Assembly: GCA_963825055.1 (NCBI GenBank)
Contig: CAWGSK010000012.1
Location: forward strand, 256,001 to 320,000
Length of the DNA: 64,000 bases
Reading direction: 5' to 3'
Source: an uncultured Gemmatimonadales bacterium
GTDB taxonomy: Bacteria; Gemmatimonadota; Gemmatimonadetes; Gemmatimonadales; GWC2-71-9
Both the position numbers and the translations under genes were made by a program. Of the stretch, positions 3,167 to 47,295 are shown one piece after another. The number at the start of each line of letters is the position of its first letter. The first letter of the stretch is position 1. The notes under the pieces are model-generated. The model was not told the DNA's origin. It ran no database searches and saw only the letters and a list, made by a program, of their open reading frames with translations.

Positions 3167-3988
3167 GTGGCTGAGCTGCTCGGGGCCTTCGGCGTCGGGC
3201 TGCTCGTCGGCGCGATCTCGGCCCTGACGGGCATCGGAGGCGGGGTCATCATGGTTCCGTTCCTCTACCTGGTCTACAGTGGCTCACCGTATTCCCTCAC
3301 CGCCCAGACTGTCGTGGCCCACGCCACCAGTCTGGGCGTCGCCAGTGTGACGGCCTCGGTCGGCACGTGGCGTTACCACCGGCGCCAGGCCATCGACTGG
3401 GCGGCGGGGCTCACCTACGCGATTCCCGCTGTCGTCACCGCCTTCCTGACCGCACGTGTCCTGTCCACGCTGGACGAGGCGACCTGGGTGCGCGGGGCGT
3501 TCGGGGTCATGCTGATCGTCGCCGCGGCCGACATGGCGCGCCGCGCCTGGCGTCACGACCCTGAGCAGCTGGAGATCCCGCGGTCGGGGCGTCCACCCGC
3601 CCTGCTGGGCCTGATCGGCGCCATTGGCGGCGTCCTGACCAGCGCGCTGGGGATCGGTGGTGGTCTTCTCGCGCTGCCCTCGCTGCTCTACGTCGGCAGG
3701 CTGCCCGTGCGGCAGGTCGCCCCCACCTCGTTGATGACCGTGTTCCTGGCCACCCTGGCTGGTGTTTCGGGCTACGCCCTCTCCTCCGGGGCACCGGCAG
3801 TGTCGGGCGCCATGGCCGGCTTTCTCGACCTGCGGCTGGCCCTCCCCCTCGCGCTGGGGGCCGTCTGCACCGTGCCGCTGGGCGTCTGGCTCAACCGGGC
3901 GTCCCGGCCGGTCACCCTGTATGTCGTGTTCGCCGTGCTGCTCTCCGTGCTGGGGGCACGCCTCGCCTGGCAGGGGTTCGGGCTGTGA
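3167..3988 (+). CDS. Sulfite exporter TauE/SafE family membrane protein
   Basis: Two repeats of GIGGG..VP/LP..L followed by A.ATSL/PTSL; multiple hydrophobic segments. Confidence 0.85.
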   Translation: MAELLGAFGVGLLVGAISALTGIGGGVIMVPFLYLVYSGSPYSLTAQTVVAHATSLGVASVTASVGTWRYHRRQAIDWAAGLTYAIPAVVTAFLTARVLSTLDEATWVRGAFGVMLIVAAADMARRAWRHDPEQLEIPRSGRPPALLGLIGAIGGVLTSALGIGGGLLALPSLLYVGRLPVRQVAPTSLMTVFLATLAGVSGYALSSGAPAVSGAMAGFLDLRLALPLALGAVCTVPLGVWLNRASRPVTLYVVFAVLLSVLGARLAWQGFGL

Positions 3989-4836
3989 GCGACATGATCG
4001 CTATCGTCGGCCCGGGACGCATGGGGCAGGGGCTCGGGCTGGCGCTCGTCGTTTCGGGCGCCGAAGTCCGCATTCTTGGACGCCGGCGGCGGGAGATGGC
4101 TGGCGGGCTCCGGCTGGTGACCCGTGACTGGCGCCCGGTTCTGACGGAAACCGATCTGGTGCTCGTGGCGACCCGGGACGACGCGATTGCCAACGCCGCC
4201 AAGGACCTGGCCGACCTCGCCGTGCTCGGCGGGCGGCACACGGTCCTGCATCTCTCCGGCAGGCTTGGCCGGAGCGCCCTGGCGCCGCTGGAGCGCACCG
4301 GGGCGTCCCTCGGCAGCCTGCATCCCCTCCAGACTATCGCCGATCCGCTCACGGCCCCGGCACGCCTCCGGGGCGTCTTTGCCGCAGTGGAGGGTGACGA
4401 CCGGGCCCGGGAGGCCGCGACGGCCCTGTGCGGTCGCCTGGGGATGCGTCCGGTGGAGGTGGATGAGGCAGGGAAGCCCGCGTACCACGCCGGCGCGGCC
4501 GTGCTGGCCAACTACACGGTCACCCTGGCCGACCTGGCCTCGCGGCTGGCGGAGCAGGCCGGGGTGGCTCCCGAAGTGGCCCACATGATGTACCTGCCGC
4601 TGTTGTCGGGAGTGCTGCAGAACCTGGAGTCCATGCCACCGGCCGATGCACTCACCGGACCGATCCGCCGGGGCGACGTTGACACGGTCAAGGCGCACCT
4701 CGCCGGTCTGGACGAAGCCGAGCGGGAACTCTACCTGGTGCTGGGGCGTGCCACGCTGAGGCTCGCGGTGCGTGGCGGACTGGATCGGGAGGCGGCGGTG
4801 GCGGTGGGGGAGGTGTTGGGGGTGGAGGAGGTCTAG
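3985..4836 (+). CDS. Rossmann-like + DUF2520 oxidoreductase (PanG-like ketopantoate reductase candidate)
   Basis: IVGPGRMG, VLHLSG, SLHPLQT, YHAGAA..AN, ALTGPIRRGD motifs. Confidence 0.85.
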   Translation: MSDMIAIVGPGRMGQGLGLALVVSGAEVRILGRRRREMAGGLRLVTRDWRPVLTETDLVLVATRDDAIANAAKDLADLAVLGGRHTVLHLSGRLGRSALAPLERTGASLGSLHPLQTIADPLTAPARLRGVFAAVEGDDRAREAATALCGRLGMRPVEVDEAGKPAYHAGAAVLANYTVTLADLASRLAEQAGVAPEVAHMMYLPLLSGVLQNLESMPPADALTGPIRRGDVDTVKAHLAGLDEAERELYLVLGRATLRLAVRGGLDREAAVAVGEVLGVEEV

Positions 4837-4837
4837 G

Positions 4838-4929
4838 GGTCGAAAGGTCGAGAGGTCCAGGGTCGAGAGGTCAGGAGAGCCGGAGTACTCGACTCCTCGA
4901 CTGCTCGACTTCTCGACTTCTTGACCTCT
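4838..4929. repeat. Inverted pair of octamer tandem arrays, family A (GGTCGAGA ~5 units / CTCGACYN ~5 units)
   Basis: 4838-4876 ggtcgaaa ggtcgaga ggtccag ggtcgaga ggtcagga; 4888-4929 ctcgactc ctcgactg ctcgactt ctcgactt cttgacct; fills the gap between two convergent stop codons. Confidence 0.9.
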
Positions 4930-5574
4930 CTACGGCTCTACCACCCTCACACCGCTCGGCACCTTGAATACGAAAGCCGACTTGCTGACCGTCCGGTTCG
5001 TCTGCACGCCGGCCAGTGTCACCGTGCGGCTGGCCCGCGCCCCCTCCTCCACTTCCACCCGCCGGGGGAGGTGGTCTCCCCGGTCAATCCAGATGGTGGC
5101 GGCCCGGAAGGGCAGCGACGAGTCCTTCGGAACAAGGCGCAATACGTCTGTCTGGCGTCCGCCCACCGGTTCCACGCGCAGCCAGGTCGAGTCATAGCGT
5201 TCGTTGGGGCGATCCAGGAACCAGGCAATCACATTGGGGCCGGCGCTCGGGCTTTCGGGGGCGGGGTAGCGGAGCACCTGGCCGGGCGTGGAGCTCGGCG
5301 TGTACACCCAGAGGTGCTCTCCGTCCAGCACGATTGCTTCGCCGTCGGGATCGGTGAAGTGCATGGCAAACCGGTTCTCGCCGGTCTGCATGAGCCGGCC
5401 CCGGCTCTCCATGGCGCCCGACATGTCCTCGATGCGCTGCGTGAAGTCCGCGCTGAATGAGCTGAGGGCCTTGTATGTACGGGCGGCCTCGGCCAGGATC
5501 GCCTGCGGGTCCTGAGCGCGAAGCGGCCCGGCAACCATCGCCAGGCCGGCTGCGGCAAGGATGTATGACCTCAT
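4930..5574 (-). CDS. lolA: Outer membrane lipoprotein carrier protein LolA
   Basis: Signal peptide (..LRA-QDP), FSADFTQ, F...FTDPDGEAIVLDGEHLWVY, F.FKVPSGV; start taken at MRSYIL. Confidence 0.85.
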   Translation of the reverse strand: MRSYILAAAGLAMVAGPLRAQDPQAILAEAARTYKALSSFSADFTQRIEDMSGAMESRGRLMQTGENRFAMHFTDPDGEAIVLDGEHLWVYTPSSTPGQVLRYPAPESPSAGPNVIAWFLDRPNERYDSTWLRVEPVGGRQTDVLRLVPKDSSLPFRAATIWIDRGDHLPRRVEVEEGARASRTVTLAGVQTNRTVSKSAFVFKVPSGVRVVEP

Positions 5575-5589
5575 TCGAACTCCGATTCT

Positions 5590-5617
5590 CCGACTCAACG
5601 ACTTACGACTCAACGAA
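5590..5617. repeat. Short octamer array, family B (TCAACGAC)
   Basis: cgactcaacgacttacgactcaacgaac between aroF and lolA. Confidence 0.75.
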
Positions 5618-6720: not shown

Positions 6721-6864
6721 AGTCGAGGGGTCCAGAGGTCGAGCAGTCGAGTGGTTTCGGCCTCCAGACCTCTCGACCCCTCGACCTCTCGACCGTTCGA
6801 CCTCTCGACTTCTCGACTTCTCGGCTTCTCGGCTTCTCGACCTCTCGACCTCTCGACCTCCGAC
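6721..6864. repeat. Inverted pair of octamer arrays, family A (4 units GGTCGAG-like, then ~12-13 units CTCGACCT-like)
   Basis: 6721-6752 agtcgagg ggtccaga ggtcgagc agtcgagt; 6764-6864 ccagacct ctcgaccc ctcgacct ctcgaccg ttcgacct ctcgactt x2 ctcggctt x2 ctcgacct x3; abuts the smc stop. Confidence 0.92.
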
Positions 6865-12469: not shown

Positions 12470-12559
12470 GTGAGTAGTGCTTCAGGGCGAGCGTCACCCG
12501 AGTGGGTTCGGCCCCATCCCTGATTCACTACTCACTACTCACTACTCACTACTCACTGC
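12470..12559. repeat. Inverted heptamer arrays, family C (GTGAGTA / TCACTAC x5)
   Basis: 12470-12479 gtgagtagtg; 12525-12559 tcactac x4 + tcactgc; inner tcaggg/ccctga extends the stem. Confidence 0.9.
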
Positions 12560-12563
12560 TTCT

Positions 12564-15500
12564 CTAGAACGTCGGCCCGAGGCTCAGCGTCCAGAGGCTG
12601 TTCACGCCATCGCGGTTGAGCGGGTTCGACCAGTCCAGCCGCAGGATCAGGATGCCCAGCACGTTCATCCGGATCGACGCGCCGATGGTCTGCATCGGGG
12701 TGCGGACCGTGACGGGGCTGTCGCCCGGGTCGCGGCTGAACTTGAGCGTGTTGCCACTCCGCCATGCCATGCCCACGTCATAGAACAGGGCGCCTTCGAT
12801 CGGCGGGAAGCCGATCGGCACGAACCCGAGCGACGCGTTCAGCAGCGGGAACCGGAGCTCGGCGCTGGCCAGTGCGATTTGCGTTCCTACGAGGCGGTCG
12901 AGGGCAGCGCAGCCGGTCTGGGTGCCGATGTCGTTGGAGTTCAGGCACTCGTTCCGCCGGTAGGAGCCGGAGGTGTTTCCACGGAGCAGCTCGGTGCTGC
13001 CGAGGAAGACCTGGAACTGGTCCGCGTCGCGTCCCAACCGGCCGAAATAGAGCGCGCGGGTGGCGAACGTGAACGGCCCGAAGAGATGGTCGTAACGGCG
13101 ATAGTCGGCCGTGGCCTGGGTGAAGGTCCAGCCGCCGATCGTCTGGGCCAGCTCGAAGCGGGAGCGCCGTCCGAGCAGGGGTCCGGTGTAGCCAAAGATG
13201 GTGTTGTCGTGCACCAGCGCGACCGACGGCTCGGCGTAGGTGACGTTGTTGAGCCCCTGCTCGTCCAGGGTCGCCTGGCGCGTGGCGAAGCCGGTGCCCG
13301 GGTCGTACGGCTCGAGGATGCTGAGCCGGGCGTCGTCTACGTTTGCCACCCGGACCCCCGCCTCGATCCGGCGGAAGCGGTTGATGGGATAGTATGCCTG
13401 TCCGAACGCCGAGCGGATCACCAGCCGGCGGATGTTGGTGACGAGGGTGTTCTCAGTGGACGTCGGCTCCCCCGGACGAATCTCGCTTGGCTCCAGGAAG
13501 AAGTAGGGGTCCTGCGAGACGCCGGTGATCCAGTTGACCCGCTTCTCCTGGTTGAGGTATGCGGCCAGGATCTGCGACTCGGTGAGGCGTCCGTTGACGT
13601 AGCCCGAAAAGATGAGCGTGTGGTTGTTGAGGATATCGCTCAGGGCGATGGTCGTGCCACCGAAGAACCCGTTCCCGAACGTGTCACGCGTGTAGCCGAT
13701 GGACGGTCGCGCGATGTAGTCCGGCGTCAGCTTGACGTTATAGTCCCGGATGGTGAACTCGCTCGTGTCCGGGAGATTGAGCGACGTGCTGTCCAGCAGG
13801 GCCTGGATCGAGACCGGGTTCGGGAGCAGGGAATCGATGCCGGTCCGGGTGGAGTCCGACTCGCGGAACCCGCTGGGCGTACGGTAGACCGACCCGCCCT
13901 GGCGCACCGCCCCCGACGCCTCCCCGGTGTCCGCCGGCGCAGCGCGGGGGACGTCCGGCGCAACCGCGGCGAGCTGATTGGGCCGCTCCTCCACCGGGCG
14001 CGGGGGGTGCGCGTACGACCGCGGGTTGGAAAGGGTGTAGACGTCGTAGTTCGAGTCCTCGTAGTACACGAAGGCCAGACGGTCGACGTCGCGGGCCCAG
14101 CTCAGGACCGGGGCGAGCGGGATGATACCCTGGACGCCCGTGTAGAAGTTCGTGATCTGGCTCAGCGACCGGTTGGTGAGGTCGTACATGTAGATGTTGC
14201 TGACGCCGTCCCGGTCGGACACGAACGCAATCTGGTTCCCGTCGGGCGACCACTGCGGGCTCGAGTTGCGGCCCTGCATCTGGTCCAGCACCTCGACGTT
14301 GCCGCTGTCCAGGTGATAGAGCGCGATCCGGAAGTTGCCGTACTTGAGCTGGTCGAAGTTGGTTTCCGGGCCCCGGTCGGTGCTGAAGGCAATGGTCTTC
14401 CCGTCCGGCGACCAGACCGGATGGAAGGCAGCGTACTTGTCGTTGGTGAGGCGCTGGAGGTCGGACCCGTCCTGGTTCACGACGAAAAGGTCCGAGAGCC
14501 CGCCGTCATATCCGGTGAAGACGATGCGGGTTCCGTCGGGGCTCCAGCTCGGCGTGGTGACCCCGTCCAGCGGGACCTTGATGCGGCCGATCTCGTCCTT
14601 CTTGTCCACGTCGACGATGACGATGTCGTCCCGCGGGCCGCTCTTGGCGGCGAGGACGAGGCGGCGCCCGTCCGGCGCGAAGTCAACGCCGGAGTTGATG
14701 AACCGGAAGGTTTCGTAGTTGGCGCTGAAGGAGGACTTGAGCAGCCGACCCTCCACCCGGCCCGTGTTGCCATCCGCCAGGTAGAGGTCGATGAAGTAGG
14801 TGTTCTTCTCGCTGAAGTACGCGACCTTCGACCCGTCCGGGGAGAGGGCCGGGGCCAGGTGCACGGTCCCGTCCGAACGCTTCTCGGTCAGCAGCTCGCT
14901 GGCCACGGTGCGCGCCTTGACGCGGTCGCCGATCTGGGGCAGGTACTTCTTCTGGACGGCGTCCCGCCACTGGTCGGAAAGCTGATCGAAGTTGAGCCCG
15001 ATCACCCGCCGGAAGGCACCTTCGAGGCTCCCGCTGACGCTGCTGTTCAGGATGGCGCCGATCGCCTCGTCCCCCCATCGCTCGCCGATATAGGCGAGGA
15101 TGGCGTGGCCGAAGCGGTACGGGAAAATTCGCGGGTCGTACGTCAGCTGCTCGATGGTGGGGAGGTCGCCCTCGAGGGCGGCGTCCCGGAGCCACATGGC
15201 GGTATTCGCATCGATCCGGCCCAGGGAGAGGTACTCCGCCATCCCCTCCACGAACCAGCCCGGCGGCCGGAGCTGGATGATGGTCTGGATGCCGGCCCCG
15301 GCCTTGCCACGGCTCCAGATGTCGTACTGAAACTGGTGGACCATCTCGTGCGTGAGCACGTGGTCGAAGTCGGCGTAGGAGCCGGTGAACGGCAGGATGT
15401 TCCGCTGCTTGAAGAAGTCGGTCTGCCCGCCCACACCCTCGGGAATGTCACTGATGTTGGTCTGCTGGAATTGCGAGTGTGACGCGTAGACGATGATCGG

Positions 15501-15746
15501 CTTCCGCTCGGTGAAGCGGTGGTTCAGCACCCGGGTGAGGCGCGCGTACGAGCGCTCGGCCATGCGGGCCGCATCCAGCGCAGCCGCCCGCTCCTCCGGG
15601 TAGAAGTAGACGTCGAAGTGCTCGGTCTGGATGATCTTGAAGTCGAAGGACTCGTAATGGACCTTGTTCTGCCCGAAGTACTGCGCGTGCAGCGCCGGCA
15701 GCGCCAGCGCGGACAGGATCAGGACCAGACCACCGATGCGTTTCAT
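12564..15746 (-). CDS. Omp85/BamA-family outer membrane protein with N-terminal gluzincin-like peptidase and PD40 (TolB-like) propeller
   Basis: Signal peptide then QYFGQNKV; HEMVH + WFVEGMAEY; repeated P.WSPDG..I.F; barrel with LRG, SAELRFP, LFYDVG, terminal LSLGPTF. Confidence 0.85.
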   Translation of the reverse strand: MKRIGGLVLILSALALPALHAQYFGQNKVHYESFDFKIIQTEHFDVYFYPEERAAALDAARMAERSYARLTRVLNHRFTERKPIIVYASHSQFQQTNISDIPEGVGGQTDFFKQRNILPFTGSYADFDHVLTHEMVHQFQYDIWSRGKAGAGIQTIIQLRPPGWFVEGMAEYLSLGRIDANTAMWLRDAALEGDLPTIEQLTYDPRIFPYRFGHAILAYIGERWGDEAIGAILNSSVSGSLEGAFRRVIGLNFDQLSDQWRDAVQKKYLPQIGDRVKARTVASELLTEKRSDGTVHLAPALSPDGSKVAYFSEKNTYFIDLYLADGNTGRVEGRLLKSSFSANYETFRFINSGVDFAPDGRRLVLAAKSGPRDDIVIVDVDKKDEIGRIKVPLDGVTTPSWSPDGTRIVFTGYDGGLSDLFVVNQDGSDLQRLTNDKYAAFHPVWSPDGKTIAFSTDRGPETNFDQLKYGNFRIALYHLDSGNVEVLDQMQGRNSSPQWSPDGNQIAFVSDRDGVSNIYMYDLTNRSLSQITNFYTGVQGIIPLAPVLSWARDVDRLAFVYYEDSNYDVYTLSNPRSYAHPPRPVEERPNQLAAVAPDVPRAAPADTGEASGAVRQGGSVYRTPSGFRESDSTRTGIDSLLPNPVSIQALLDSTSLNLPDTSEFTIRDYNVKLTPDYIARPSIGYTRDTFGNGFFGGTTIALSDILNNHTLIFSGYVNGRLTESQILAAYLNQEKRVNWITGVSQDPYFFLEPSEIRPGEPTSTENTLVTNIRRLVIRSAFGQAYYPINRFRRIEAGVRVANVDDARLSILEPYDPGTGFATRQATLDEQGLNNVTYAEPSVALVHDNTIFGYTGPLLGRRSRFELAQTIGGWTFTQATADYRRYDHLFGPFTFATRALYFGRLGRDADQFQVFLGSTELLRGNTSGSYRRNECLNSNDIGTQTGCAALDRLVGTQIALASAELRFPLLNASLGFVPIGFPPIEGALFYDVGMAWRSGNTLKFSRDPGDSPVTVRTPMQTIGASIRMNVLGILILRLDWSNPLNRDGVNSLWTLSLGPTF

Positions 15747-15759
15747 GACCAACTCCCGC

Positions 15760-16086
15760 TTACGAACTGGCCAGCAGGGCGGGGGCATCGCCCCACAGTC
15801 GCTCAAGCTGGTAAAAGGCCCGGGTTTCCGGATGGAAGAGATGAATGACGAAGTCCACGTAGTCGAGCAGGACCCAGTGCCCGCCGGACAGCCCTTCCAC
15901 GTGATGGGTCCGGTGCCCGGCTTCACGGAGTGTTTCCATGACCGCCTCGGCGATGCCGCGGACGTGCGCGTCCGAAGTTCCCGAGGCGATGATGAAGTAG
16001 TCCGTGGCGTCGCTCACGTGACGCAGGTCCAGCACCCGGAGCTCCCGCGCCTTCCGATCTTCGATGGCCCGGACCGCCGTCGCCAC
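15760..16086 (-). CDS. rsfS: Ribosome silencing factor
   Basis: EDRKA..L.VLDL, TDYFIIASG.S..HV, EG...HWVLLDYVDFVIHLF..R.FYQLERLW. Confidence 0.93.
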   Translation of the reverse strand: MATAVRAIEDRKARELRVLDLRHVSDATDYFIIASGTSDAHVRGIAEAVMETLREAGHRTHHVEGLSGGHWVLLDYVDFVIHLFHPETRAFYQLERLWGDAPALLASS

Positions 16087-20078: not shown

Positions 20079-20228
20079 GCGTTGAGTGGTTGAACAGCTG
20101 TTTCGTCGGCTTGACACCGTTGCACGTCGCTAACATTCTACAACCTAACGACTTAACGACTTAACGACTTAACGACTCAACGACTCAACGACTTACGATC
20201 TAACGACTCAACGACTAACCACCCAACG
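20079..20228. repeat. Octamer arrays, family B (GTTGAGTG x2 / YYAACGAC ~10 units)
   Basis: 20079-20097 gcgttgagtggttgaacag; 20145-20228 ctaacgac ttaacgac x3 tcaacgac x2 ttacgat ctaacgac tcaacgac ..., ending a few nt before the pirin ATG. Confidence 0.92.
20111..20139 (+). promoter_or_regulatory. Putative sigma70 promoter for pirin
   Basis: TTGACA-17 nt-CATTCT. Confidence 0.4.
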
Positions 20229-21094: not shown

Positions 21095-21168
21095 GTTGAG
21101 TTGTTGAGTGGTTGAGTAGTTGAGTGGTGAGTTTGATTCAGCCGGGATCGCACGACTCAACGATTTAC
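21095..21168. repeat. Inverted octamer arrays, family B (GTTGAGTN x5 / ACGACTCAACGAT)
   Basis: gttgagtt gttgagtg gttgagta gttgagtg gtgagtt directly after the pirin TAG; 21152-21168 acgactcaacgatttacc. Confidence 0.88.
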
Positions 21169-23741: not shown

Positions 23742-23806
23742 GCCGACTGCCGATTGCCGACTGCCGATTGCCGACATCCGACACTCTACTGCCTACTCCC
23801 TCCCCC
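23742..23806. repeat. Heptamer array, family D (GCCGAYT x6) plus degenerate CCTACT units
   Basis: gccgact gccgatt gccgact gccgatt gccgaca tccgaca ctctact gcctact; directly downstream of the ychF stop. Confidence 0.88.
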
Positions 23807-24901
23807 TCACACATTAAACCGGAACAGCATCACATCCCCGTCCTGCACCACGTATTCCTTCCCTTCGGCCCGGGACAGGCCCTGCTCCCGCGCGCCCTTC
23901 CAGCCGGCGGCCTTCACGAAGGCCTCATAGGCGACGGTCTCCGCGCGGATGAATCCCTTCTCGAAGTCCGAGTGGATTACCCCGGCGGCGACCGGGGCCT
24001 TGTCCCCGCGATGGATGGTCCAGGCCCGGACCTCCTTCTCGCCGGCGGTGAAGTAGCTCTGGAGGCCGAGCAGGTGATAGGCCGCGTGCGCGAGCCGGTC
24101 GAGCCCGCTCTCTGTGAGGCCGAGGGATTCGAGAAACTCCGCGCGGTCTTCTGGTGGGAGTTCAGCCAGCTCCGCCTCGACCTTGGCGGAGAAGGTCACA
24201 ATCTCCGCCGGTTCGCCATCCCGGTTGATAGCCGCCTGCAACCCCTCTGTCAGTGCGTTCCCGTCCAGTTCATCCTCGGCGACGTTGGCGGCATAGAGCA
24301 CCGGCTTCGCCGTGAGCAGGTTGAACGTCCGGTAGACGGCGGCGTCTTCGTCGGGCGGTACCACACTTCGCGCGGGCTTCCCGGCGGACAGCGCTGCCTG
24401 GAGCTGTTCCAGCAGCCGTACCTCGGCCTTCGCCTGCGTGTCGCCCGACTTGGCACCCTTCTGCGCACGGTCCAGCCGCCGTTCCACGGTCGCGAGGTCG
24501 GCCAGGCCCAGTTCGAGGTTGATGATCTCGCGGTCGCGCACGGGATCGACATCGCCCATCACGTGCTGGACGTCGTCATCCCGGAAACAGCGGACCACGT
24601 GCACCACCGCGTCCACCTCACGGATGTTGGCCAGGAACTTGTTGCCCAGCCCCTCGCCCTCGCTGGCGCCCTTCACCAGCCCGGCGATGTCCAGGAACTC
24701 CACGGTGGCCGGGAGGGTGCGCTCCGGACTGACGATGCCGGCAAGCGTCTCGAGCCGGGGATCGGGGACCTGGACTACGCCGACGTTGGGCTCGATGGTC
24801 GCGAACGGATAGTTCGCGACCAGCGCCCCGGCCTGGGTCAGGGCGTTGAAGAGCGTGGATTTGCCGACGTTGGGGAGGCCGACGATGCCGAGTCTTAGCA
24901 A
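23807..24901 (-). CDS. ychF: Redox-regulated ATPase YchF
   Basis: GIVGLPNVGKSTLFNALT, ANYPFATIEPN, DIAGLVKGASEGEGLGNKFL, FIRAE, EGKEYVVQDGD; TTG start. Confidence 0.97.
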   Translation of the reverse strand: MLRLGIVGLPNVGKSTLFNALTQAGALVANYPFATIEPNVGVVQVPDPRLETLAGIVSPERTLPATVEFLDIAGLVKGASEGEGLGNKFLANIREVDAVVHVVRCFRDDDVQHVMGDVDPVRDREIINLELGLADLATVERRLDRAQKGAKSGDTQAKAEVRLLEQLQAALSAGKPARSVVPPDEDAAVYRTFNLLTAKPVLYAANVAEDELDGNALTEGLQAAINRDGEPAEIVTFSAKVEAELAELPPEDRAEFLESLGLTESGLDRLAHAAYHLLGLQSYFTAGEKEVRAWTIHRGDKAPVAAGVIHSDFEKGFIRAETVAYEAFVKAAGWKGAREQGLSRAEGKEYVVQDGDVMLFRFNV

Positions 24902-24905
24902 GGGA

Positions 24906-24937
24906 GGTCGAGAGGTCCAGGGGTCAAGAGGTCGAGG
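24906..24937 (+). repeat. Family A octamer array, left arm of the four-helix-bundle cassette
   Basis: ggtcgaga ggtccagg ggtcaaga ggtcgagg. Confidence 0.88.
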
Positions 24938-25037
24938 GACGCAGAACAAGCGACGAATCGTTCCGGGCCGCGTCGCTTCGGTACGGATTGTTTCCCGGTC
25001 GAGTGTATCTCAGTACGCACTCTTCCGAGACTGGGGC

Positions 25038-25397
25038 ATGGCCGACTTCAAGCAACTGGCGGTCTGGCAACGCTCACACCAGTTCGCCCTTGAGATATAT
25101 CGGGTCACGTCGACCTTCCCTGCCGCGCAGCGGTTCACGCTGACCGCTCAACTTCAGCGCGCGGCTGTGTCGGTCTCCTCCAATATCGCTGAGGGATGCG
25201 GTCGTTCCGGTGACGCCGAATTCTGTCGCTTCCTTCGTATTGCCCGCGGCTCGGCCAATGAAATCGAGTGTCAGCTTCTACTTGCGCGGGATCTGGGCTT
25301 TCTTCCGCGCGACGAGTGGGAGAGGCTGGACTCCGTGTGTCAACTGCTCAGCGCCATGCTCCTGAAACTGGCAAATGCGATTCAGGAGCAACCGTGA
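25038..25397 (+). CDS. Four helix bundle protein (23S rRNA IVS protein / Avd-like family)
   Basis: [41 protein letters not shown]...EF.RFL.IARGSA.E..CQL.LA.DLGFL; lower GC, antisense to flanking genes. Confidence 0.93.
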
Positions 25398-25413
25398 GAA
25401 GCACCCGCTCCAC

Positions 25414-25433
25414 TCTCGACCTCTCGACCTCTC
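25414..25433 (-). repeat. Family A octamer array, right (inverted) arm of the four-helix-bundle cassette
   Basis: tctcgacc tctcgacc tctc = reverse complement of the left-arm unit; abuts the hppA stop. Confidence 0.85.
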
Positions 25434-25434
25434 T

Positions 25435-27498
<2,064 letters not shown>

Positions 27499-29886: not shown

Positions 29887-29961
29887 GTAAACGGTGAACG
29901 GTAAACAGTGAACGGGGTGGCTGAGGCGGGGACGCTTCACCGTTGACTGTTCACCGTTCAC
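29887..29961. repeat. Inverted heptamer arrays, family E (GTRAACR x4 / YGTTCAC x4)
   Basis: gtaaacg gtgaacg gtaaaca gtgaacg ... cttcac cgttgac tgttcac cgttcac; last unit contains the ispE stop. Confidence 0.9.
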
Positions 29962-41567: not shown

Positions 41568-43303
41568 GCCGCGTCGTCCGCTCTTTCCTCGTTCTCTGCC
41601 TCCTGCTGTCTGCGGGGGCCTCCGTGGCCCGGGCGCAGGACGCGGCGCTGGTTCGCGCCTTCAACCTGGAGCGACGCGGCGACTACGACGCAGCGGGGAA
41701 GGCCTATCGTGAGATCCTCTCCAGCACCCCGGACGACGTGGCCGCGCTGCTCGGGCTCGAACGGGTGCTGACCAACCAGAACCGGGTCGCAGAGCTGGTC
41801 CCGGCGGTGCAGGCCGCGCTTGCCACCGACCCGCGGGCCAGCGCGATCTACAGCCTCGGCATTCGCGCGTGGAGCGCGGCAGGACAGCCCGACAGCGTGG
41901 AGAAGGTGGTGGACCGCTGGGTGGCGATCCAGCCGAACGACGAGTCCCCGTACCGGGAGTGGGCCCTCCAGGCACTGGCCCGCCGCGATCGCCAGGAAGC
42001 GCGCCGCATCCTGATGCTGGCCCGGGAAAAACTGCACCGGCCGACGGCACTGGCCGGTGAAATGGCCCAGCTGTCCATGGCGGAACTCGATTATCCGGGC
42101 GCCGTGCGCGAGTGGGCCGCCGCAGTGCGCGCGTTCCCGGGCTACCGTGCCGCCGCCATCAACGCGCTCGCGGTGGTGCCCGTCCGGGTCCGCGGGCAGG
42201 TGATCGATGAGCTGACCGCGGGCAGCGAACCGGCCGGGCCGCAGATCGCCGCGGTCCTGCAGGCCCGCTGGGGCAGTCCGATGGCCGCGTGGGCCCTGCT
42301 CGATGGATCGCTGCCTGCCCGGCCGGAGCAGGCCCTGGATGTCCTGGGGGCGCTCCGGGATGCTGTCAGCGGCCTGGCTGGGAGCGATGCGCGCCGGGCC
42401 GAGGGGCACGTCCTGGAAGCCATGGCGGACCGGAGTCCGCCTGGCCGTGCGGCGTCGCTTCGCCTGGAGGCGGCCCGCGCCTACGCGGCGGGGGGCGACA
42501 GTGAGTCGGCCCGACGGGAGCTGGGGCAGGCCGGCGCCGCCGTCGCGGATTCGCAGCAGCTTGCGGCGGAGGCCGGGGTCACACTCGTGCGGGTCCTCCT
42601 GGACGAGGGCAAGGTCCGGGATGCTGCCCAGGAACTCGCGCGCTACCGCAACGCGCTGCCCGGCGGCATCGTGCAGGAGTTGAGCCGGCAGGTGGCCACG
42701 GCCTGGGTGGCGAAGGGCGAACTGGACCGTGCCGACAGCCTCGTCGCGCAGGACAGTACCGTGGAAGGCCTGGCCCTTCGCGGGCGCCTCTTCCTGTACC
42801 GGGGCGAGCTGGGTGAGGCCCGGAAAGCCCTCCAGTCCGCCGGGCCATATGCCGGCACGCGTGACGAGGTGACCAGTCGGACGACCATCCTGGCGCTGCT
42901 TCAGTCGCTCGAATCCGACCATGATCCCGCGCTTGGCCAGGCCTTCCTTACCCTCGCGCGGGGCGACACGATGTCGGCGGTGAATGCCTTCACCTCCGTG
43001 GGCGGACGCCTGCCGGCGGGCAGTGGCGGCGCGGAGGTCACGCTGCTGGCGGGGCGGCTCGCGGCCGCGTCGGGCCATGGAGACAGGGCCGAGCCGCTGC
43101 TCCGGCGCGCGGCCGCCGCGGACTCGTCGTCAGCCGCACCGGCAGCCATGTTCGAACTTGCCAGGGTGCTGGTGGGGCTCCAGCGCGCCTCGGAGGCCGT
43201 TCCCGTCCTGGAGAGCCTGATCCTGAATCGTCCGGAGAGTGCCGTCGTGCCGCAGGCCAGGCGGCTGCTGGACGAACTTCGCGGGGCGGTGCCGAAAACA
43301 TGA
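41564..43303 (+). CDS. Exported tetratricopeptide-repeat protein
   Basis: Signal peptide (ARA-QD), Ala-rich helical repeats, C-terminal A..A.FELA..L...LE.LI...PES....AR. Confidence 0.75.
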   Translation: MSRVVRSFLVLCLLLSAGASVARAQDAALVRAFNLERRGDYDAAGKAYREILSSTPDDVAALLGLERVLTNQNRVAELVPAVQAALATDPRASAIYSLGIRAWSAAGQPDSVEKVVDRWVAIQPNDESPYREWALQALARRDRQEARRILMLAREKLHRPTALAGEMAQLSMAELDYPGAVREWAAAVRAFPGYRAAAINALAVVPVRVRGQVIDELTAGSEPAGPQIAAVLQARWGSPMAAWALLDGSLPARPEQALDVLGALRDAVSGLAGSDARRAEGHVLEAMADRSPPGRAASLRLEAARAYAAGGDSESARRELGQAGAAVADSQQLAAEAGVTLVRVLLDEGKVRDAAQELARYRNALPGGIVQELSRQVATAWVAKGELDRADSLVAQDSTVEGLALRGRLFLYRGELGEARKALQSAGPYAGTRDEVTSRTTILALLQSLESDHDPALGQAFLTLARGDTMSAVNAFTSVGGRLPAGSGGAEVTLLAGRLAAASGHGDRAEPLLRRAAAADSSSAAPAAMFELARVLVGLQRASEAVPVLESLILNRPESAVVPQARRLLDELRGAVPKT

Positions 43304-44598
43304 AACGACGTGATTTCCTCGCGGGCACCGGCATGGTGCTGGGTGCGGTGGGACTCGACTGGCCGCTCGGGAGTCTCTGGCCGCCGGCGCGGCTGGCGGG
43401 CGGGCTGCTCGTGCCCATGGACGAGACCCAGTCGGATCACCTGAAGGCGTACGGGCTTGCCTACCGGGTGCTCCAGCGCGGGGCGCGCGCGGAATGGTTC
43501 CTGAATTACCGGAGCGGGGCGTTCCTGCTCCCGCAGGACCCGGCAACGACGCGTGACGCGGCCCTGGCCGGGGTGTCTGCGCAGGCGATCGACGCGGGGG
43601 CAGCGGACGGAATCCGCGCCGAGATTGCCGGTGGCAACATGGACGCCGTGCCACTGGAGAAGGCGCCGAAGGTGGCCGTGTACGTGACGCCGAATGCCGC
43701 GCCCTGGGACGACGCCGTCACCATGGCGCTGCAGTACGCCGGCATTGAATACGACAAGATCTGGGATGAAGACGTCCTGGCGGGCAAGCTCTCGACCTAT
43801 GACTGGCTGCACCTCCATCACGAGGATTTCACCGGACAGTATTCGAAATTCTACCTCAACTACGCCGGCAGCCCGTGGCTCACCGAGATGGTCTCGCTCA
43901 ACCAGGGGGTGGCGAGGAAACTCGGCTACCCCAACGTGCCCGCGGAGAAGCGCGCGGTGGCCCAGGCGATCGGGGCCTATGTCGAGCGGGGTGGTTTCCT
44001 CTTCGCGATGTGCACCGCCACCGAGACCCTCGATCTCGCCCTCGCGAGCGCGGGAACGGACATCGCTGCCAGCTACGCGGACGGCGACCCGATGGACCCC
44101 GATGCGCAACAGCGGATGGACTGGAGCCGGACCCTCGCCTTCCGGGACGCGAGCCTGGTGGCGAGCCCGGCCATTTCCCAGTTCTCCGACATCGACGGCC
44201 ACCAGGTCAACTCGCTGGACCGCCGCCAGCCGCTGGGGTCATTCTCGCTCTTCGGCTTCAGCGCCAAGATCGATCCCGTCGCCACCATGCTGGTGCAGAA
44301 CCACCGGCAGGTCATTCCGGACTTCTACGGCCTCACCACGTCCTTTACGCGGCGGACCCTCAAGCCCGCAGTGACCGTCCTGGCCGATGAGCCCGGGGCA
44401 CCATGGGTCAAGTACATTCACGGCGAGCACGGGCAGGGGACGTGGACCTTCTTCGGCGGCCACGACCCCGAGGACCCCCAGCACCAGATCGGCGACCCTC
44501 CGACCGACCTGTCGCTCCATCCCCATTCCCCGGGCTACCGCCTGATTCTCAACAACGTGCTCTTCCCCGCGGCGAAGAAGCGGGAGCTGAAGACGTAG
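43300..44598 (+). CDS. Conserved exported protein with Tat signal (family often labelled 'asparagine synthetase B'-like)
   Basis: KRRDFL twin-arginine; LLVPMD..Q.DHLKAYG, WFLNYR.G.F, PWDDAVT, DWLHLHHEDFTGQY.KF, GGFLFAMC, GGHDPED, SPGYRLILNNVLFPAA. Confidence 0.75.
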   Translation: MKRRDFLAGTGMVLGAVGLDWPLGSLWPPARLAGGLLVPMDETQSDHLKAYGLAYRVLQRGARAEWFLNYRSGAFLLPQDPATTRDAALAGVSAQAIDAGAADGIRAEIAGGNMDAVPLEKAPKVAVYVTPNAAPWDDAVTMALQYAGIEYDKIWDEDVLAGKLSTYDWLHLHHEDFTGQYSKFYLNYAGSPWLTEMVSLNQGVARKLGYPNVPAEKRAVAQAIGAYVERGGFLFAMCTATETLDLALASAGTDIAASYADGDPMDPDAQQRMDWSRTLAFRDASLVASPAISQFSDIDGHQVNSLDRRQPLGSFSLFGFSAKIDPVATMLVQNHRQVIPDFYGLTTSFTRRTLKPAVTVLADEPGAPWVKYIHGEHGQGTWTFFGGHDPEDPQHQIGDPPTDLSLHPHSPGYRLILNNVLFPAAKKRELKT

Positions 44599-44603
44599 AG
44601 ACC

Positions 44604-44651
44604 AGTGAGTAGTGAGTAGTGACTAGTGACTAGTGTAGTTCGTGACTAGTG
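44604..44651 (+). repeat. Heptamer array, family C (AGTGAST)
   Basis: agtgagt agtgagt agtgact agtgact agtgt ... gtgact agtg, 5 nt after TAG. Confidence 0.88.
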
Positions 44652-44734
44652 CTTGAGGGCGGCCGCCCTGTTGGTGAAGGGATTGGGCGAAAATGCCACT
44701 GCTGCCCGCCCCCCCGCCCCTGTATCTTTCCTGT

Positions 44735-44761
44735 ACGACTCAACGATTCAACGACTCAACG
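44735..44761. repeat. Octamer array, family B (TCAACGAY x3)
   Basis: acgac tcaacgat tcaacgac tcaacg upstream of dinG. Confidence 0.8.
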
Positions 44762-44787
44762 CCTCCTTCCCGCGCCGCAGGTTTTCC

Positions 44788-47295
44788 GTGTCCATAGCCC
44801 GCATCCCTCCCCACCTGCGCGACCTGATGGCGCGCGAGATTGCCTCGACCGGCGGCCGGGAGGTGTTGTTCGTCGCGCGGGTGGACGGCGAGGGCGTGGT
44901 CACGGACATCCGTCCAGTGGCCCGCGGCCGGTCCGACATGGTGCTTGCACTGCCCGGTGTCGCGGAGCAGGGCGACATGGTGCTGCACAACCATCCCGGC
45001 GGAAACCTGGAGCCGTCCCTGGCCGATCTGGACGTGGCGGCGCGCCTGCATGACGGCGGGGTGGGTTTCGGCATCGTCAACAACGAGGCGTCGGAACTGT
45101 CCATCGTGGTCGAAGTGCCGCGGGCGCGCGCACTCGCGCCGCTGGACACCCTGGACGTCGTCGCCCTGTTGTCGGAGGGCGGCCCGGTCGCGGAGATGAT
45201 GGGGCAGTACGAGGACCGACCGAGCCAGCGGGACATGACCGCCTACATCACCGATGCCTACAACGATGGCGGGATCGTGCTGCTGGAGGCCGGGACGGGC
45301 GTCGGCAAATCCTTCGCGTACCTCGTGCCGGCGCTCGCGTGGGCGAAGCAGAACGCGGAACGCACTGTCGTCAGCACCAACACGATCAACCTGCAGGAGC
45401 AGCTCGTCGGCAAGGACCTGCCGTTCCTCCGGCGGGCACTGGGTGACGCGGACCACACCCCGACGTTCGCCCTGCTCAAGGGCTGGCGGAATTATGTCTG
45501 CCTCGCGCGGCTCGACCAGGCGCTGGCCTCGCCGCAGTCGCTGCTCGAGCCGGAGAAGCACCACGAGCTGGACGGCCTCGCCGCCTGGGTACAGCACACC
45601 GGCGACGGCACGCTCGCGGATTTGCCGGTGCCGCCGAGCCCGGATGTCTGGGACGAGGTGAGTGCGGAGGCCGACCTCTGCACCCGGCTCAAGTGCCCCC
45701 GTTTCGACCAGTGTTTCCTGTTCAGCGCCCGGCGACGCGCCGCGGAGGCTGATGTCGTGGTCGTCAACCACCACCTGCTCGCGGCGGACCTCTCGGTCAG
45801 GCAGGCCCAGGACAACTGGCTGGAGGCCGCGGTCCTGCCTCCGTACCGCCGGCTGATCCTGGATGAGGCGCACCATCTCGAGGACGTGGCGGCCGGACAC
45901 CTCGGTGTTCGCGTGACCAGCCGGGGCGTGCAGCGGCTGCTGGGCCGGCTGGAGCGGAACGGGCGGGGGCTGGTGCCGTCGCTCACCGCCGAACTGGCCC
46001 GGCGCGACGATCTCCTGAGCCGCGCGAGCCTGGACCTGATCTACCAGCGGCTGCTCCCGACGCTGGCGCGGGCGAAGAGCGCGGCCGATGCCGTCATGGT
46101 CCGGCTCGCGTCGTTCCTGGACGGCAGCGGGATGCACGTCGTCCGGCTGACGGAGGACTTCGCCTCGGACGAGGTGTGGGCAAGGGGGCTCGGCACGGAG
46201 CTGGACGGGACCCTGGAAGCATTCCGGCAGCTCAGGGAGCACGTCGAGACGATCGCCGACCGCCTCCGGGAGGGGCCGGACAGCGAGCGGCGTGACCAGG
46301 TCCTGGGGGAGCTGCGTGGTGTCTTCCGCCGGCTCGAGGCTGCCAGCGACGCGTTCAACCGCACCCTGCGCCCGGCAGGCGGCGGTGCGCCGGCGGTGCG
46401 CTGGCTCGAACGCAGCGGACAGCGCGGCGGGCATGTCTCCCTGGCCGCCGTGCCGCTGGACCTGGCGCCCCTCCTCCGCGAGTTGATCTTTGAAAAAGTG
46501 GAAACCGTCGTGCTCACGAGCGCGACCCTCGCGGCCGGCGGCGATTTCGAGTTCCTCGAGTCGCGGCTCGGACTGACCGGCGACGGGGTTTCCGCGTCGG
46601 TCCGGGAAATCCTGCCTTCGCCGTTCGACTTCGCCTCGCAGTGCCTCTTCGGCATACCCGAGGACCTGCCCGACCCGCGCGAGGACGAGACGGCCCACGC
46701 GGTGGCCGTGAGCCAGGTGGTGGCGGACCTCGCCGGCGCGAGCGACGGCGGCATGTTTGTCCTGTTCACCAGCTACGCCGCGCTCCGGCGCGTGGCGGGC
46801 GAGCTGCGGGCCGTGATCGGGCATCGCTGGCCGCTCTTCGTGCAGGGCGAGGGCAACCGGGACCAGCTCCTCCGCCGCTTTCGCGAGGCCGGAAACGCGA
46901 TCCTGCTCGGCACGGATTCGTTCTGGGAGGGCGTGGATGTCCCGGGCCGGGCCCTCCGGGTCCTGGTCCTGACCAAATTACCGTTCAAGGTCCCGAGCGA
47001 GCCTCTCACCCAGGCCCGGCTGGAACGTCTGGCGGAGCAGGGCGAGGACGGCTTCATGGGTTACCTGCTCCCGCACGCGGCGCTCAAGCTGAAGCAGGGT
47101 TTCGGGCGGCTGATCCGCTCGTCGCGGGACGTCGGCGTGGTCGTCCTGCTGGACCGGCGGGTGATTACCAAGCGGTACGGCCCGCTCATTCTCGGGGGCC
47201 TGCCGCAGGCGGAGACCGTGATCGGCACCTGGGCGCAGGTGCGGACCAAGTGCGAGGACTTCTTCGCCCGCCACGGACTGGGGGTGAGCGTATGA
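44788..47295 (+). CDS. DinG/YoaA-family helicase with N-terminal JAB/MPN domain
   Basis: GREV..HNHPGGNLEPSLAD (JAMM); R.SQ Q-motif, EAGTGVGKS, Fe-S Cys (YVC..C...C....C), ILDEAHH, LTSATL, VLFTSY, FWEGVD, QGFGRLIRS. Confidence 0.9.
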   Translation: MSIARIPPHLRDLMAREIASTGGREVLFVARVDGEGVVTDIRPVARGRSDMVLALPGVAEQGDMVLHNHPGGNLEPSLADLDVAARLHDGGVGFGIVNNEASELSIVVEVPRARALAPLDTLDVVALLSEGGPVAEMMGQYEDRPSQRDMTAYITDAYNDGGIVLLEAGTGVGKSFAYLVPALAWAKQNAERTVVSTNTINLQEQLVGKDLPFLRRALGDADHTPTFALLKGWRNYVCLARLDQALASPQSLLEPEKHHELDGLAAWVQHTGDGTLADLPVPPSPDVWDEVSAEADLCTRLKCPRFDQCFLFSARRRAAEADVVVVNHHLLAADLSVRQAQDNWLEAAVLPPYRRLILDEAHHLEDVAAGHLGVRVTSRGVQRLLGRLERNGRGLVPSLTAELARRDDLLSRASLDLIYQRLLPTLARAKSAADAVMVRLASFLDGSGMHVVRLTEDFASDEVWARGLGTELDGTLEAFRQLREHVETIADRLREGPDSERRDQVLGELRGVFRRLEAASDAFNRTLRPAGGGAPAVRWLERSGQRGGHVSLAAVPLDLAPLLRELIFEKVETVVLTSATLAAGGDFEFLESRLGLTGDGVSASVREILPSPFDFASQCLFGIPEDLPDPREDETAHAVAVSQVVADLAGASDGGMFVLFTSYAALRRVAGELRAVIGHRWPLFVQGEGNRDQLLRRFREAGNAILLGTDSFWEGVDVPGRALRVLVLTKLPFKVPSEPLTQARLERLAEQGEDGFMGYLLPHAALKLKQGFGRLIRSSRDVGVVVLLDRRVITKRYGPLILGGLPQAETVIGTWAQVRTKCEDFFARHGLGVSV

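Follow-up and report, generated by a model that had tools for sequence, protein, structure and literature searches.

What kind of element encloses a small protein gene between inverted arrays of a short tandem repeat and fits the whole into the gap between two neighboring genes? The question is raised by the hppA-ychF junction in a 64,000-nt stretch of DNA (hereafter the window; C12:256001-320000) from G000, the assembly of an uncultured Gemmatimonadales bacterium (3.53 Mb in 35 contigs, 68% GC, 87% complete). At this junction, a 119-aa four-helix-bundle gene is flanked by arms of inverted eight-base units. Here, a comparison of all genes of this family in the genome, in relatives and across other phyla was used to ask what the arrangement represents. 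The results suggest that gene and arms form one unit that is kept, copied and replaced, and the chances are about even that the entire proposed chain holds, namely that the unit is a selfish DNA cassette with arms as its ends and with a ring protein predicted to bind the repeats.

The insert occupies 536 nt between ychF (YchF GTPase; 23807-24898, - strand), recognized by the profile scan of window open reading frames (ORFs) and by comparison with relatives, and its upstream neighbor hppA (H+-pyrophosphatase; 25435-27498, - strand), and it is made up of the two arrays, a leader, an ORF and a spacer. The left, G-rich arm (24904-24938, + strand) consists of about four tandem GGTCGAGA-type units, including the variants GGTCCAGG, GGTCAAGA and GGTCGAGG beside GGTCGAGA, as delimited by Tandem Repeats Finder (TRF), by sequence and by arm pairing. 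A leader of 99 nt (24939-25037, + strand) runs from this arm to the ATG of the four-helix-bundle gene (25038-25397, + strand), which is antisense to both neighbors. The right, C-rich arm (25413-25433, + strand) comprises 2.6 copies of CTCTCGAC, the reverse complement of the left unit, and begins 15 nt past the stop codon of the gene. The arms lie 5 nt from the start codon of ychF and 1 nt from the stop codon of hppA, respectively. The GC fraction of the cassette is 0.59-0.61, compared to 0.66-0.70 in the flanks. On both strands, the arms pair with each other across the insert and close a long-range stem in the minimum-energy fold; the sense-strand duplex has 26 pairs (-42.1 kcal/mol). An earlier reading made from the sequence only had described a lower-GC, antisense 119-aa gene between hppA and ychF, inverted octamer arms abutting both neighbors, and a position of the ORF in the loop of a potential long hairpin; coordinates, profile matches, base composition, arm distances and folds all agree with that description. 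Where 14 relatives have ATG, ychF starts here with TTG (24896-24898, - strand): the insertion has remodeled the beginning of this essential-type GTPase gene.

The encoded protein belongs to the 23S rRNA intervening sequence (IVS) protein family, S23p, with matches well above the curated cut-offs to PF05635 (E=1.3e-37, 128.7 bits, cut-off 33.8) and TIGR02436 (E=2.2e-36, 124.4 bits, cut-off 24). The nearest solved structures are 2gsc (Xcc0516; E=4.1e-22 for 2gsc_A) and 2rld, both of which are entries with five chains, and a pentamer of Xcc0516 is cited in PMC10053308 and PMC4990558. Arms have a median length of 4.4 units, and 66% of them contain 3-6 units. In six close pairs with unsaturated synonymous sites, dN/dS ranged from 0.04 to 0.09; the protein is under strong purifying selection.

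All eight PF05635 genes of the genome lie between inverted 7/8-mer arrays, with units of at least six families: GGTCGAGA, GTGGCAA, GTGACTA, GGCGGTCG (twice), GAGTGGTT, GGGAGTG and CGGTGAA. Genome-wide, TRF identified 853 non-overlapping 7/8-mer arrays and 141 inverted array pairs within 3 kb, with loops of up to 100 nt in 92 and of 100-400 nt in seven; arrays of at least three copies number 532. Six inverted pairs have a loop of 400-500 nt, and every one of them encloses a PF05635 gene, compared to zero direct pairs at that spacing; the arms of the other two PF05635 genes differ by 2 bases per unit and missed the inverted-pair rule. Among array pairs more than 600 nt apart, inverted and direct orientations are equally represented (35 vs 36), indicating that this range is background; the longer loops contain ordinary genes.

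The association extends far beyond this genome. The family was found in 15 of 20 relatives from the same order, and a strict inverted-arm rule was passed by 18 of 28 loci from 16 relatives, with many different units, and by 50 of the 80 loci in a set that spans about 15 phyla. This cross-phylum set, collected with the motif SIP[AS]N[IV]AEG from one genome per species, comprises the best 80 of 601 confirmed places. TRF detected arrays on both sides of the gene at 55 of these 80 loci (reverse-complementary at 51 of the 55), only upstream at 12, only downstream at nine and on neither side at four. An inverted-repeat score of at least 30 was reached by 64 of the 80 loci, compared to 8 of 150 displaced controls. 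The sequence-only reading had proposed a search for array enrichment around four-helix genes as a check, and the enrichment proved to be overwhelming. Gene orientation could be classified for 26 of 36 loci from the same order, with 15 genes antisense to both neighbors, four sense and seven mixed; the excess of antisense over sense has a two-sided binomial p of about 0.02, with kin that are not independent. Leaders in the same order are 47-128 nt long, compared to a distance of 0-50 nt between left arm and start codon in other phyla.

Two departures from the usual arrangement were also observed. In the Flavobacteriia Faecalibacter (L096) and Gaetbulibacter (L097), the gene is flanked by long direct arrays, with about 22 copies on each side in the former. 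The relative G019 has eight PF05635 matches; the two loci seen (L010 and L021) are armless and 120 kb of this genome contained no 7/8-mer array. The G019 genes may form a subfamily that lacks arms and has a different role.

Pairwise nucleotide comparison of all 116 loci delimited what is shared between cassettes. Two GGCGG-armed paralogues of the genome are 71% alike from arm start to arm end (434-1041 vs 434-1053) and have unrelated flanks. Among cyanobacterial cassettes from different genera, the match between Sphaerospermopsis and Umezakia covers 1398-1891, with arms spanning 1397-1891, and Microcoleaceae and Sphaerospermopsis are likewise alike from arm start to arm end. The converse, different cassettes within the same flanks, was found at the hppA-ychF junction itself. 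In G013, a member of another family, the ychF and hppA flanks are 75% and 83% alike at the nucleotide level, and the cassette is not shared: the homology ends 4 nt before the left arm and restarts 21 nt after the right arm, and the G013 cassette has heptamer arms (AGTCGTG) and a protein 40% identical to that of the window. The same flanks with a different cassette also occur in Bosea compared with two other alphaproteobacteria, in Mesorhizobium compared with one, and in one Bacteroidota pair.

Other relatives show further states of this junction. In both G006 and G002, it is a clean empty site of 10-20 nt; G008, a genome without a PF05635 match, has a gene-less (GAAGGGG)n hairpin there; and G015 has a decayed cassette with other arms before ychF. 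Thus, filled, empty and swapped junction states exist, with boundaries at the arms; the sequence-only reading had suggested aligning this junction in close relatives to look for filled and empty alleles. Its suggestion that gene and arms constitute one unit is likewise supported by the relocated copies, whose homology stops at the outer arm edges. The cassette has terminal inverted ends and no transposase family; the nearest empty sites are about 20% diverged, and no target duplication is readable in them.

Two side observations concern the junctions. The C-terminal 292 residues of the window's hppA (3′ part, 25435-26400) are 88.7% identical to those of G013 and 70-76% identical to those of the same-family genomes G006, G002 and G008, and the order is reversed for ychF (68% for G013 vs 80-81% for the same-family relatives). 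These values give a hint that the end of hppA was transferred or converted along with the junction. In addition, a Tepidisphaerales locus (L099) and a Pseudoxanthomonas locus (L119), from different phyla, have unrelated cassettes between the same conserved genes with flanks 66-70% alike at the nucleotide level, a hint of preferred junctions for cassettes.

The window also contains two gene-less hairpins of the GGTCGAGA family, each with a loop of about 11 nt. One (4838-4930), between convergent DUF2520 (3985-4836) and lolA (4930-5613), fills the gap between the two stop codons, and its degenerate outer units supply both stops. The other (6721-6864), flanked by the stop codon of smc (6865) and the start codon of the DAHP-synthase gene (6685), is lopsided, with about four units on the left and 12.4 on the right. 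These are the empty arm pairs reported by the sequence-only reading, and they are real, as is its observation that the variant GGTCCAG is present in the left arms of both hairpins and of the cassette. Elsewhere among the 28 motif clusters of the family, GGTCCAG occurs only in the hairpin at C15:611 (as the complement, in the right arm) and in a loose, non-tandem cluster at C9:237819. Judged from this distribution, sharing of the variant points to local copying among three neighbors.

Within a genome, the units of dispersed arrays match those of the cassettes. Of 508 dispersed arrays, 71.5% are within 1 mismatch of a resident cassette unit; when eight foreign cassettes were drawn at random instead (300 sets), the share averaged 21% and never exceeded 41%. 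Units of the own genome are likewise the leading match in G003 (0.77) and G014 (0.73), but not in G013 (0/7). Hairpins and cassettes also have a common polarity. The G-rich arm comes first, on both strands, in all 92 short-loop hairpins of the genome, in 24 of 25 hairpins of sampled relatives, and in 63 of 75 gene-bearing cassettes (reversed in eight, neutral in four). Since it also holds for GGTCGAGA, whose units lack a stop codon, this order needs more than stop-codon supply to account for it. The intergenic, stop-proximal and G-first inverted arrays of this genome are of the 7-8-base simple-sequence repeat type.

Further 7/8-mer arrays of the window, which fill intergenic gaps up to start or stop codons, were found at 20146-20228 and 21095-21133 (around a pirin gene), 44595-44651 (between the co-directional genes 43300-44598 and 44653-47295), 12525-12557 (behind the stop of gene 12564-15926, with WD40-like/Omp85 domains), 29887-29961 and 23742-23782; they include a complete AACGGTG/TTCACCG hairpin. 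Identical hairpins with identical loops and flanks occur on the contig pairs C12/C21, C12/C25 and C15/C16 (e.g., C12:548376 = C21:19036 and C15:12414 = C16:9140). These duplicates are probably assembly redundancy; the contamination estimate of the assembly is 6%.

Taken together, these observations show that the PF05635 gene and its inverted 8-base arrays are inherited and relocated as one unit, arm to arm. The cassette likely spreads as selfish DNA, with the arms serving as its ends. Relatives of its protein form pentameric rings; the protein itself is predicted to bind the tandem arms, and this binding may serve copying or maintenance. The gene-less hairpins would then be relatives that consist of arms only, possibly maintained or mobilized in trans, and the room behind stop codons would be where they settle.

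Several results weigh against this explanation. To our knowledge, the 119-aa protein contains no known transposase-like fold or motif. Identical units occur in different phyla, yet the corresponding proteins are 41-50% identical, which is the background level. The contigs of three soil DNA runs contain the filled form only, with no joint across 24903-25434, although contigs cannot reveal rare alleles and are therefore uninformative on excision; the sequencing runs found to cover an appreciable part of the stretch were all soil DNA metagenomes, with no RNA run among them, and one 712-nt soil contig spans 24921-25632 without differences. Insertion of the gene into hairpins that were already present could likewise produce the match between dispersed units and resident cassettes, and comparison of hairpin loops with cassette interiors gave only chance matches of 8-14 nt. 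Across 17 relatives, array load and gene number are only weakly correlated (Spearman 0.31, p=0.23; 40-147 kb sampled per genome, with kin that are not independent and with G007 left out as its stretches were chosen near genes). Two gene-bearing genomes, G020 (four armed genes) and G019 (eight unarmed genes), have no arrays in 100-120 kb, and gene-free genomes still contain 0-2.9 arrays per 100 kb. Loads of at least 5 per 100 kb were confined to gene-bearing genomes (6/12 vs 0/5 gene-free), the six being 5 of 11 sampled without bias and G000 itself, with 15.1 per 100 kb.

Accordingly, the evidence is divided on the proposal that empty arm pairs are non-autonomous copies, target sites or scars of the full unit: the match with resident units speaks for a relationship, and the unrelated loops and the weak load correlation speak against it. 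An origin of the empty hairpins as deletion derivatives, similar to miniature inverted-repeat transposable elements, was rejected, as their loops have no sequence in common with cassette interiors. A protein-to-unit "code" was rejected as well. Protein and unit are correlated across loci (r=-0.22, 0/500 permutations), but the correlation is carried by close kin, and since proteins with identical units in different phyla are at background identity, it reflects shared descent rather than a demonstrated reading code.

The best-surviving alternative, which we consider unlikely, is that the hairpins are host gene-end structures (terminators or 3′-end stabilizers, like the REP sequences of enterobacteria) and that the gene is a separate element landing in existing loops. 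Hairpin positions, which rest on crude gene calls (2522 genes), fit this explanation. The hairpins stand right behind stop codons (median gap 3 nt, with 57% at 10 nt or less, compared to a median of 83 nt to start codons), and of 81 classified hairpins, 41 lie between convergent genes, an enrichment over the 375 such sites among 2487 junctions. Between divergent genes, hairpins are rare (five, compared to 376 junctions), and the remaining 35 lie between co-directional genes (1736 junctions); 10 further hairpins overlap a gene call and one lies at a contig edge. Their loops are unique, gene-free genomes have a few arrays, including the G008 hairpin at the hppA-ychF junction, and the cassette units sample abundant array families, which also speaks for it. 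Against it, relocated copies are homologous over the arms as well, up to the outer arm edges and no further, and arms accompany the gene also across the sample of about 15 phyla. The empty alleles of G006 and G002, whose neighboring protein is about 80% identical, appear to have no arms. No terminator-like T run follows the arms; the strict G-first polarity, which includes GGTCGAGA and other units without a stop codon, and the restriction of high array loads to genomes with the gene also speak against this alternative.

A consensus scan of 24700-25600 found no terminator-like site, that is, no short GC-rich stem with a T run, and an intrinsic terminator was therefore ruled out for the cassette arms. 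No sigma-70-type promoter was found by consensus scan of the cassette region, and Rfam returned nothing relevant for 24700-25600, the sole row being a chance miRNA match (E=0.53). The leader contains the word TTCGGTACGGATTG at about 24977-24990, and several other cassettes from the same order have it in their leaders; GGTACG is present in the leaders of 5 of 36 loci of that order, with similar words in other leaders. A GATTCGGTACG-like word was observed 40-75 nt before the start codon in the window cassette and at C13:276166, C12:680432, L014 and L009, and could act as a promoter or operator located between the arms.

A second alternative, which we regard as quite unlikely, places the element at the RNA level: as in rRNA intervening sequences, a double-strand RNase would cut the arm stem and excise the cassette from the host transcript with little harm, the protein being secondary. 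In its favor, the arms pair in the minimum-energy folds of both strands. The arm duplex is more stable on the sense strand at 38 loci, on the antisense strand at 26 and equally stable at 11, and G-U pairs number 154 in sense vs 114 in antisense duplexes. This sense-strand excess is a hint in favor of an RNA function, although it is not significant (Wilcoxon p=0.069). In most phyla, left arm and start codon are 0-50 nt apart, so that a promoter between the arms would have hardly any space. Finally, a hairpin of the same unit family as the window cassette (GTCGAGA/TCTCGAC; C12:389556-389618) lies in G000 between the 23S rRNA gene (386559-389517) and an apparent 5S rRNA gene; owing to this position in the 23S-5S spacer, it is certainly transcribed with the rRNA precursor. 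The 23S gene itself is 2959 nt long against a 2925-position model and has no insertion, and none of the 116 PF05635 loci examined had a 23S match.

RNase III, which excises the rRNA elements, was not detected in this lineage. There was no PF14622 match in G000, no PF00636 match in nine genomes and no TIGR02191 match in 21 relatives, and in a phylum sample the canonical enzyme was missing from all 46 genomes that belong to the class of the window, a set with several assemblies of 1-10 contigs, including single-contig ones. By contrast, 14 of 15 genomes from other classes of the same phylum have the gene, and control genomes matched. This looks like a class-wide loss of rnc in a class where cassettes and hairpins abound, so that excision by RNase III is unlikely to explain how the cassette persists here, and the arms are unlikely to be RNase III cutting sites in this class. 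In an hppA-ychF transcript, the stem would instead persist as a stable structure directly before the ychF start. The strong purifying selection further indicates that the protein is no passenger, and an RNA stem does not explain relocation. The RNA-level option of the sequence-only reading is thereby weakened.

It is highly improbable that the arrays arise by repeated short-template synthesis at DNA ends, as in telomere-like break healing, with an Avd-like protein as reverse transcriptase (RT) accessory: although the G-first polarity would, by reasoning, bring two G-rich strands together 3′ to 3′ at the hairpin center as in fused telomeres, and although Avd is the RT partner of diversity-generating retroelements (DGRs) according to PMC10053308, RT family PF00078 has no match in the whole 87%-complete genome, the Avd model scores far below its cut-off, and nothing ties breaks to array sites. 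No transposase, integrase or RT family was detected among the 40 window ORFs scanned either, which agrees with what the sequence-only reading had stated for the window and, for RT, extends it to the genome.

Returning to the selfish cassette, the findings would matter in several respects. A very large protein family of unexplained function, first seen within rRNA IVSs and related to Avd of DGRs, would meet the unexplained excess of heptamers in prokaryotes. If the ring protein does read its own unit, it would offer a small, naturally diversified module for nucleic-acid recognition, and if cassettes and hairpins move without a transposase, this would be a new route of DNA mobility. A still broader generalization is possible but rather doubtful: PF05635 rings may be the dedicated partners of bacterial 7-8-base repeats, with an own unit in each lineage and about one unit per subunit, forming a transposase-free mobile family that seeds G-first hairpins and causes the heptamer excess, in which case 23S IVSs would be its rRNA-lodged members. 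For genome annotation, the hairpins are relevant as they reshape gene ends and supply stop codons, and here an insertion replaced the start context of ychF. The loss of RNase III in a class rich in stems bears on how such elements are tolerated.

Among known systems, the REP/RAYT (REPIN) arrangement is one point of comparison: a single-copy Y1 HUH transposase gene is flanked by inverted short repeats that are lineage-specific and dispersed as hairpins at gene ends. The cassette resembles it in having a single flanked gene, a short repeat of which gene-less hairpin pairs are scattered over the genome at gene ends, and an own repeat for each gene lineage. It differs in its protein, a 119-aa four-helix bundle that matches PF05635 only and is not a Y1 HUH transposase, and in its arms, which are tandem arrays and not single palindromes. 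Two Y1 genes (PF01797, IS200/RAYT-type) were found in G000, at C3:21452-21799 and C20:60213-60473, with their own, non-heptamer palindromes; thus, a classical REP/RAYT-like system coexists with the cassettes. As these two copies are flanked by other repeats, Y1 transposases were rejected as drivers of the cassettes.

Avd has a related four-helix-bundle fold and forms a pentameric ring, as described in PMC10053308. Membership of the window protein in the Avd/DGR group was rejected: it scores 17.3 bits with NF033474 (cut-off 80), no RT lies beside the gene or elsewhere in the window or genome, and there are no template or variable repeats. From another context, a figure legend in PMC10910872 lists "23S rRNA IVP" among the proteins associated with CRISPR adaptation modules.

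Heptamer repeats of bacteria have been described without such a gene. Rehm et al. (2015; PMC4692102) reported GGGAATC repeats in Xanthomonas and GGGGAYT repeats in Nostoc; each Xanthomonas genome has 70-75 inverted pairs in convergent (G-first) orientation, the repeats lie no more than 50 bp from stop codons, and G-quadruplex formation is offered as the explanation. Mori et al. (2019; PMC6344855) reported an intergenic heptamer excess in prokaryotes with "no clear clue" to its cause. The likeness to the arrays of G000 includes tandem 7-base units, a preference for about four copies, intergenic location and rarity between divergent genes. In the cross-phylum sample, the Pseudoxanthomonas cassette (unit GGGAATG) and several Nostocales cassettes (AGGGAAT) carry such units. 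In contrast to the cassettes, no protein partner is named in the accessible text of either paper ("23S" and "four helix" have zero occurrences in that of PMC4692102), and many units found here lack G runs (e.g., GTGACTA and GTTGAGT).

The closest relatives of the cassette are the ORF-bearing IVSs of 23S rRNA. Leptospira reportedly has one, said to have been described by Ralph and McClelland in 1993. For the S23p-bearing IVS of Coxiella burnetii, Warrier et al. (2016; PMC4990558) describe a 28-bp stem and tandem heptamers (GACAGAT x2-3) in one arm. No paper tying the PF05635 family to repeat arrays outside rRNA was found in a literature search that left subscription journals mostly uncovered; the sequence-only reading had called it a candidate undescribed element, and this stands for arrays outside rRNA, but not for the combination of S23p and heptamers, which the Coxiella IVS already has. 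Cassette and IVS differ in that the former lies between protein genes, antisense to them, with none of the 116 loci inside 23S; in the many gene-less hairpins of the same units that accompany it in its genome; in a host class without detectable RNase III, the IVS-excising enzyme; and in a protein under strong purifying selection, compared to a Coxiella ORF that is reported to be decaying. Their likeness is more extensive. S23p is PF05635, and in both elements the ORF sits in the loop of a terminal-inverted-repeat stem, formed in the window by octamer arrays that pair over 26 positions. In the Coxiella IVS, the tandem heptamers occupy the ORF-side arm and vary in copy number among strains, the size is comparable at about 430-530 nt, and an old idea, never tested, held that the ORF serves mobility. 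The cassette between hppA and ychF is an element of the ORF-bearing IVS kind, residing outside rRNA.

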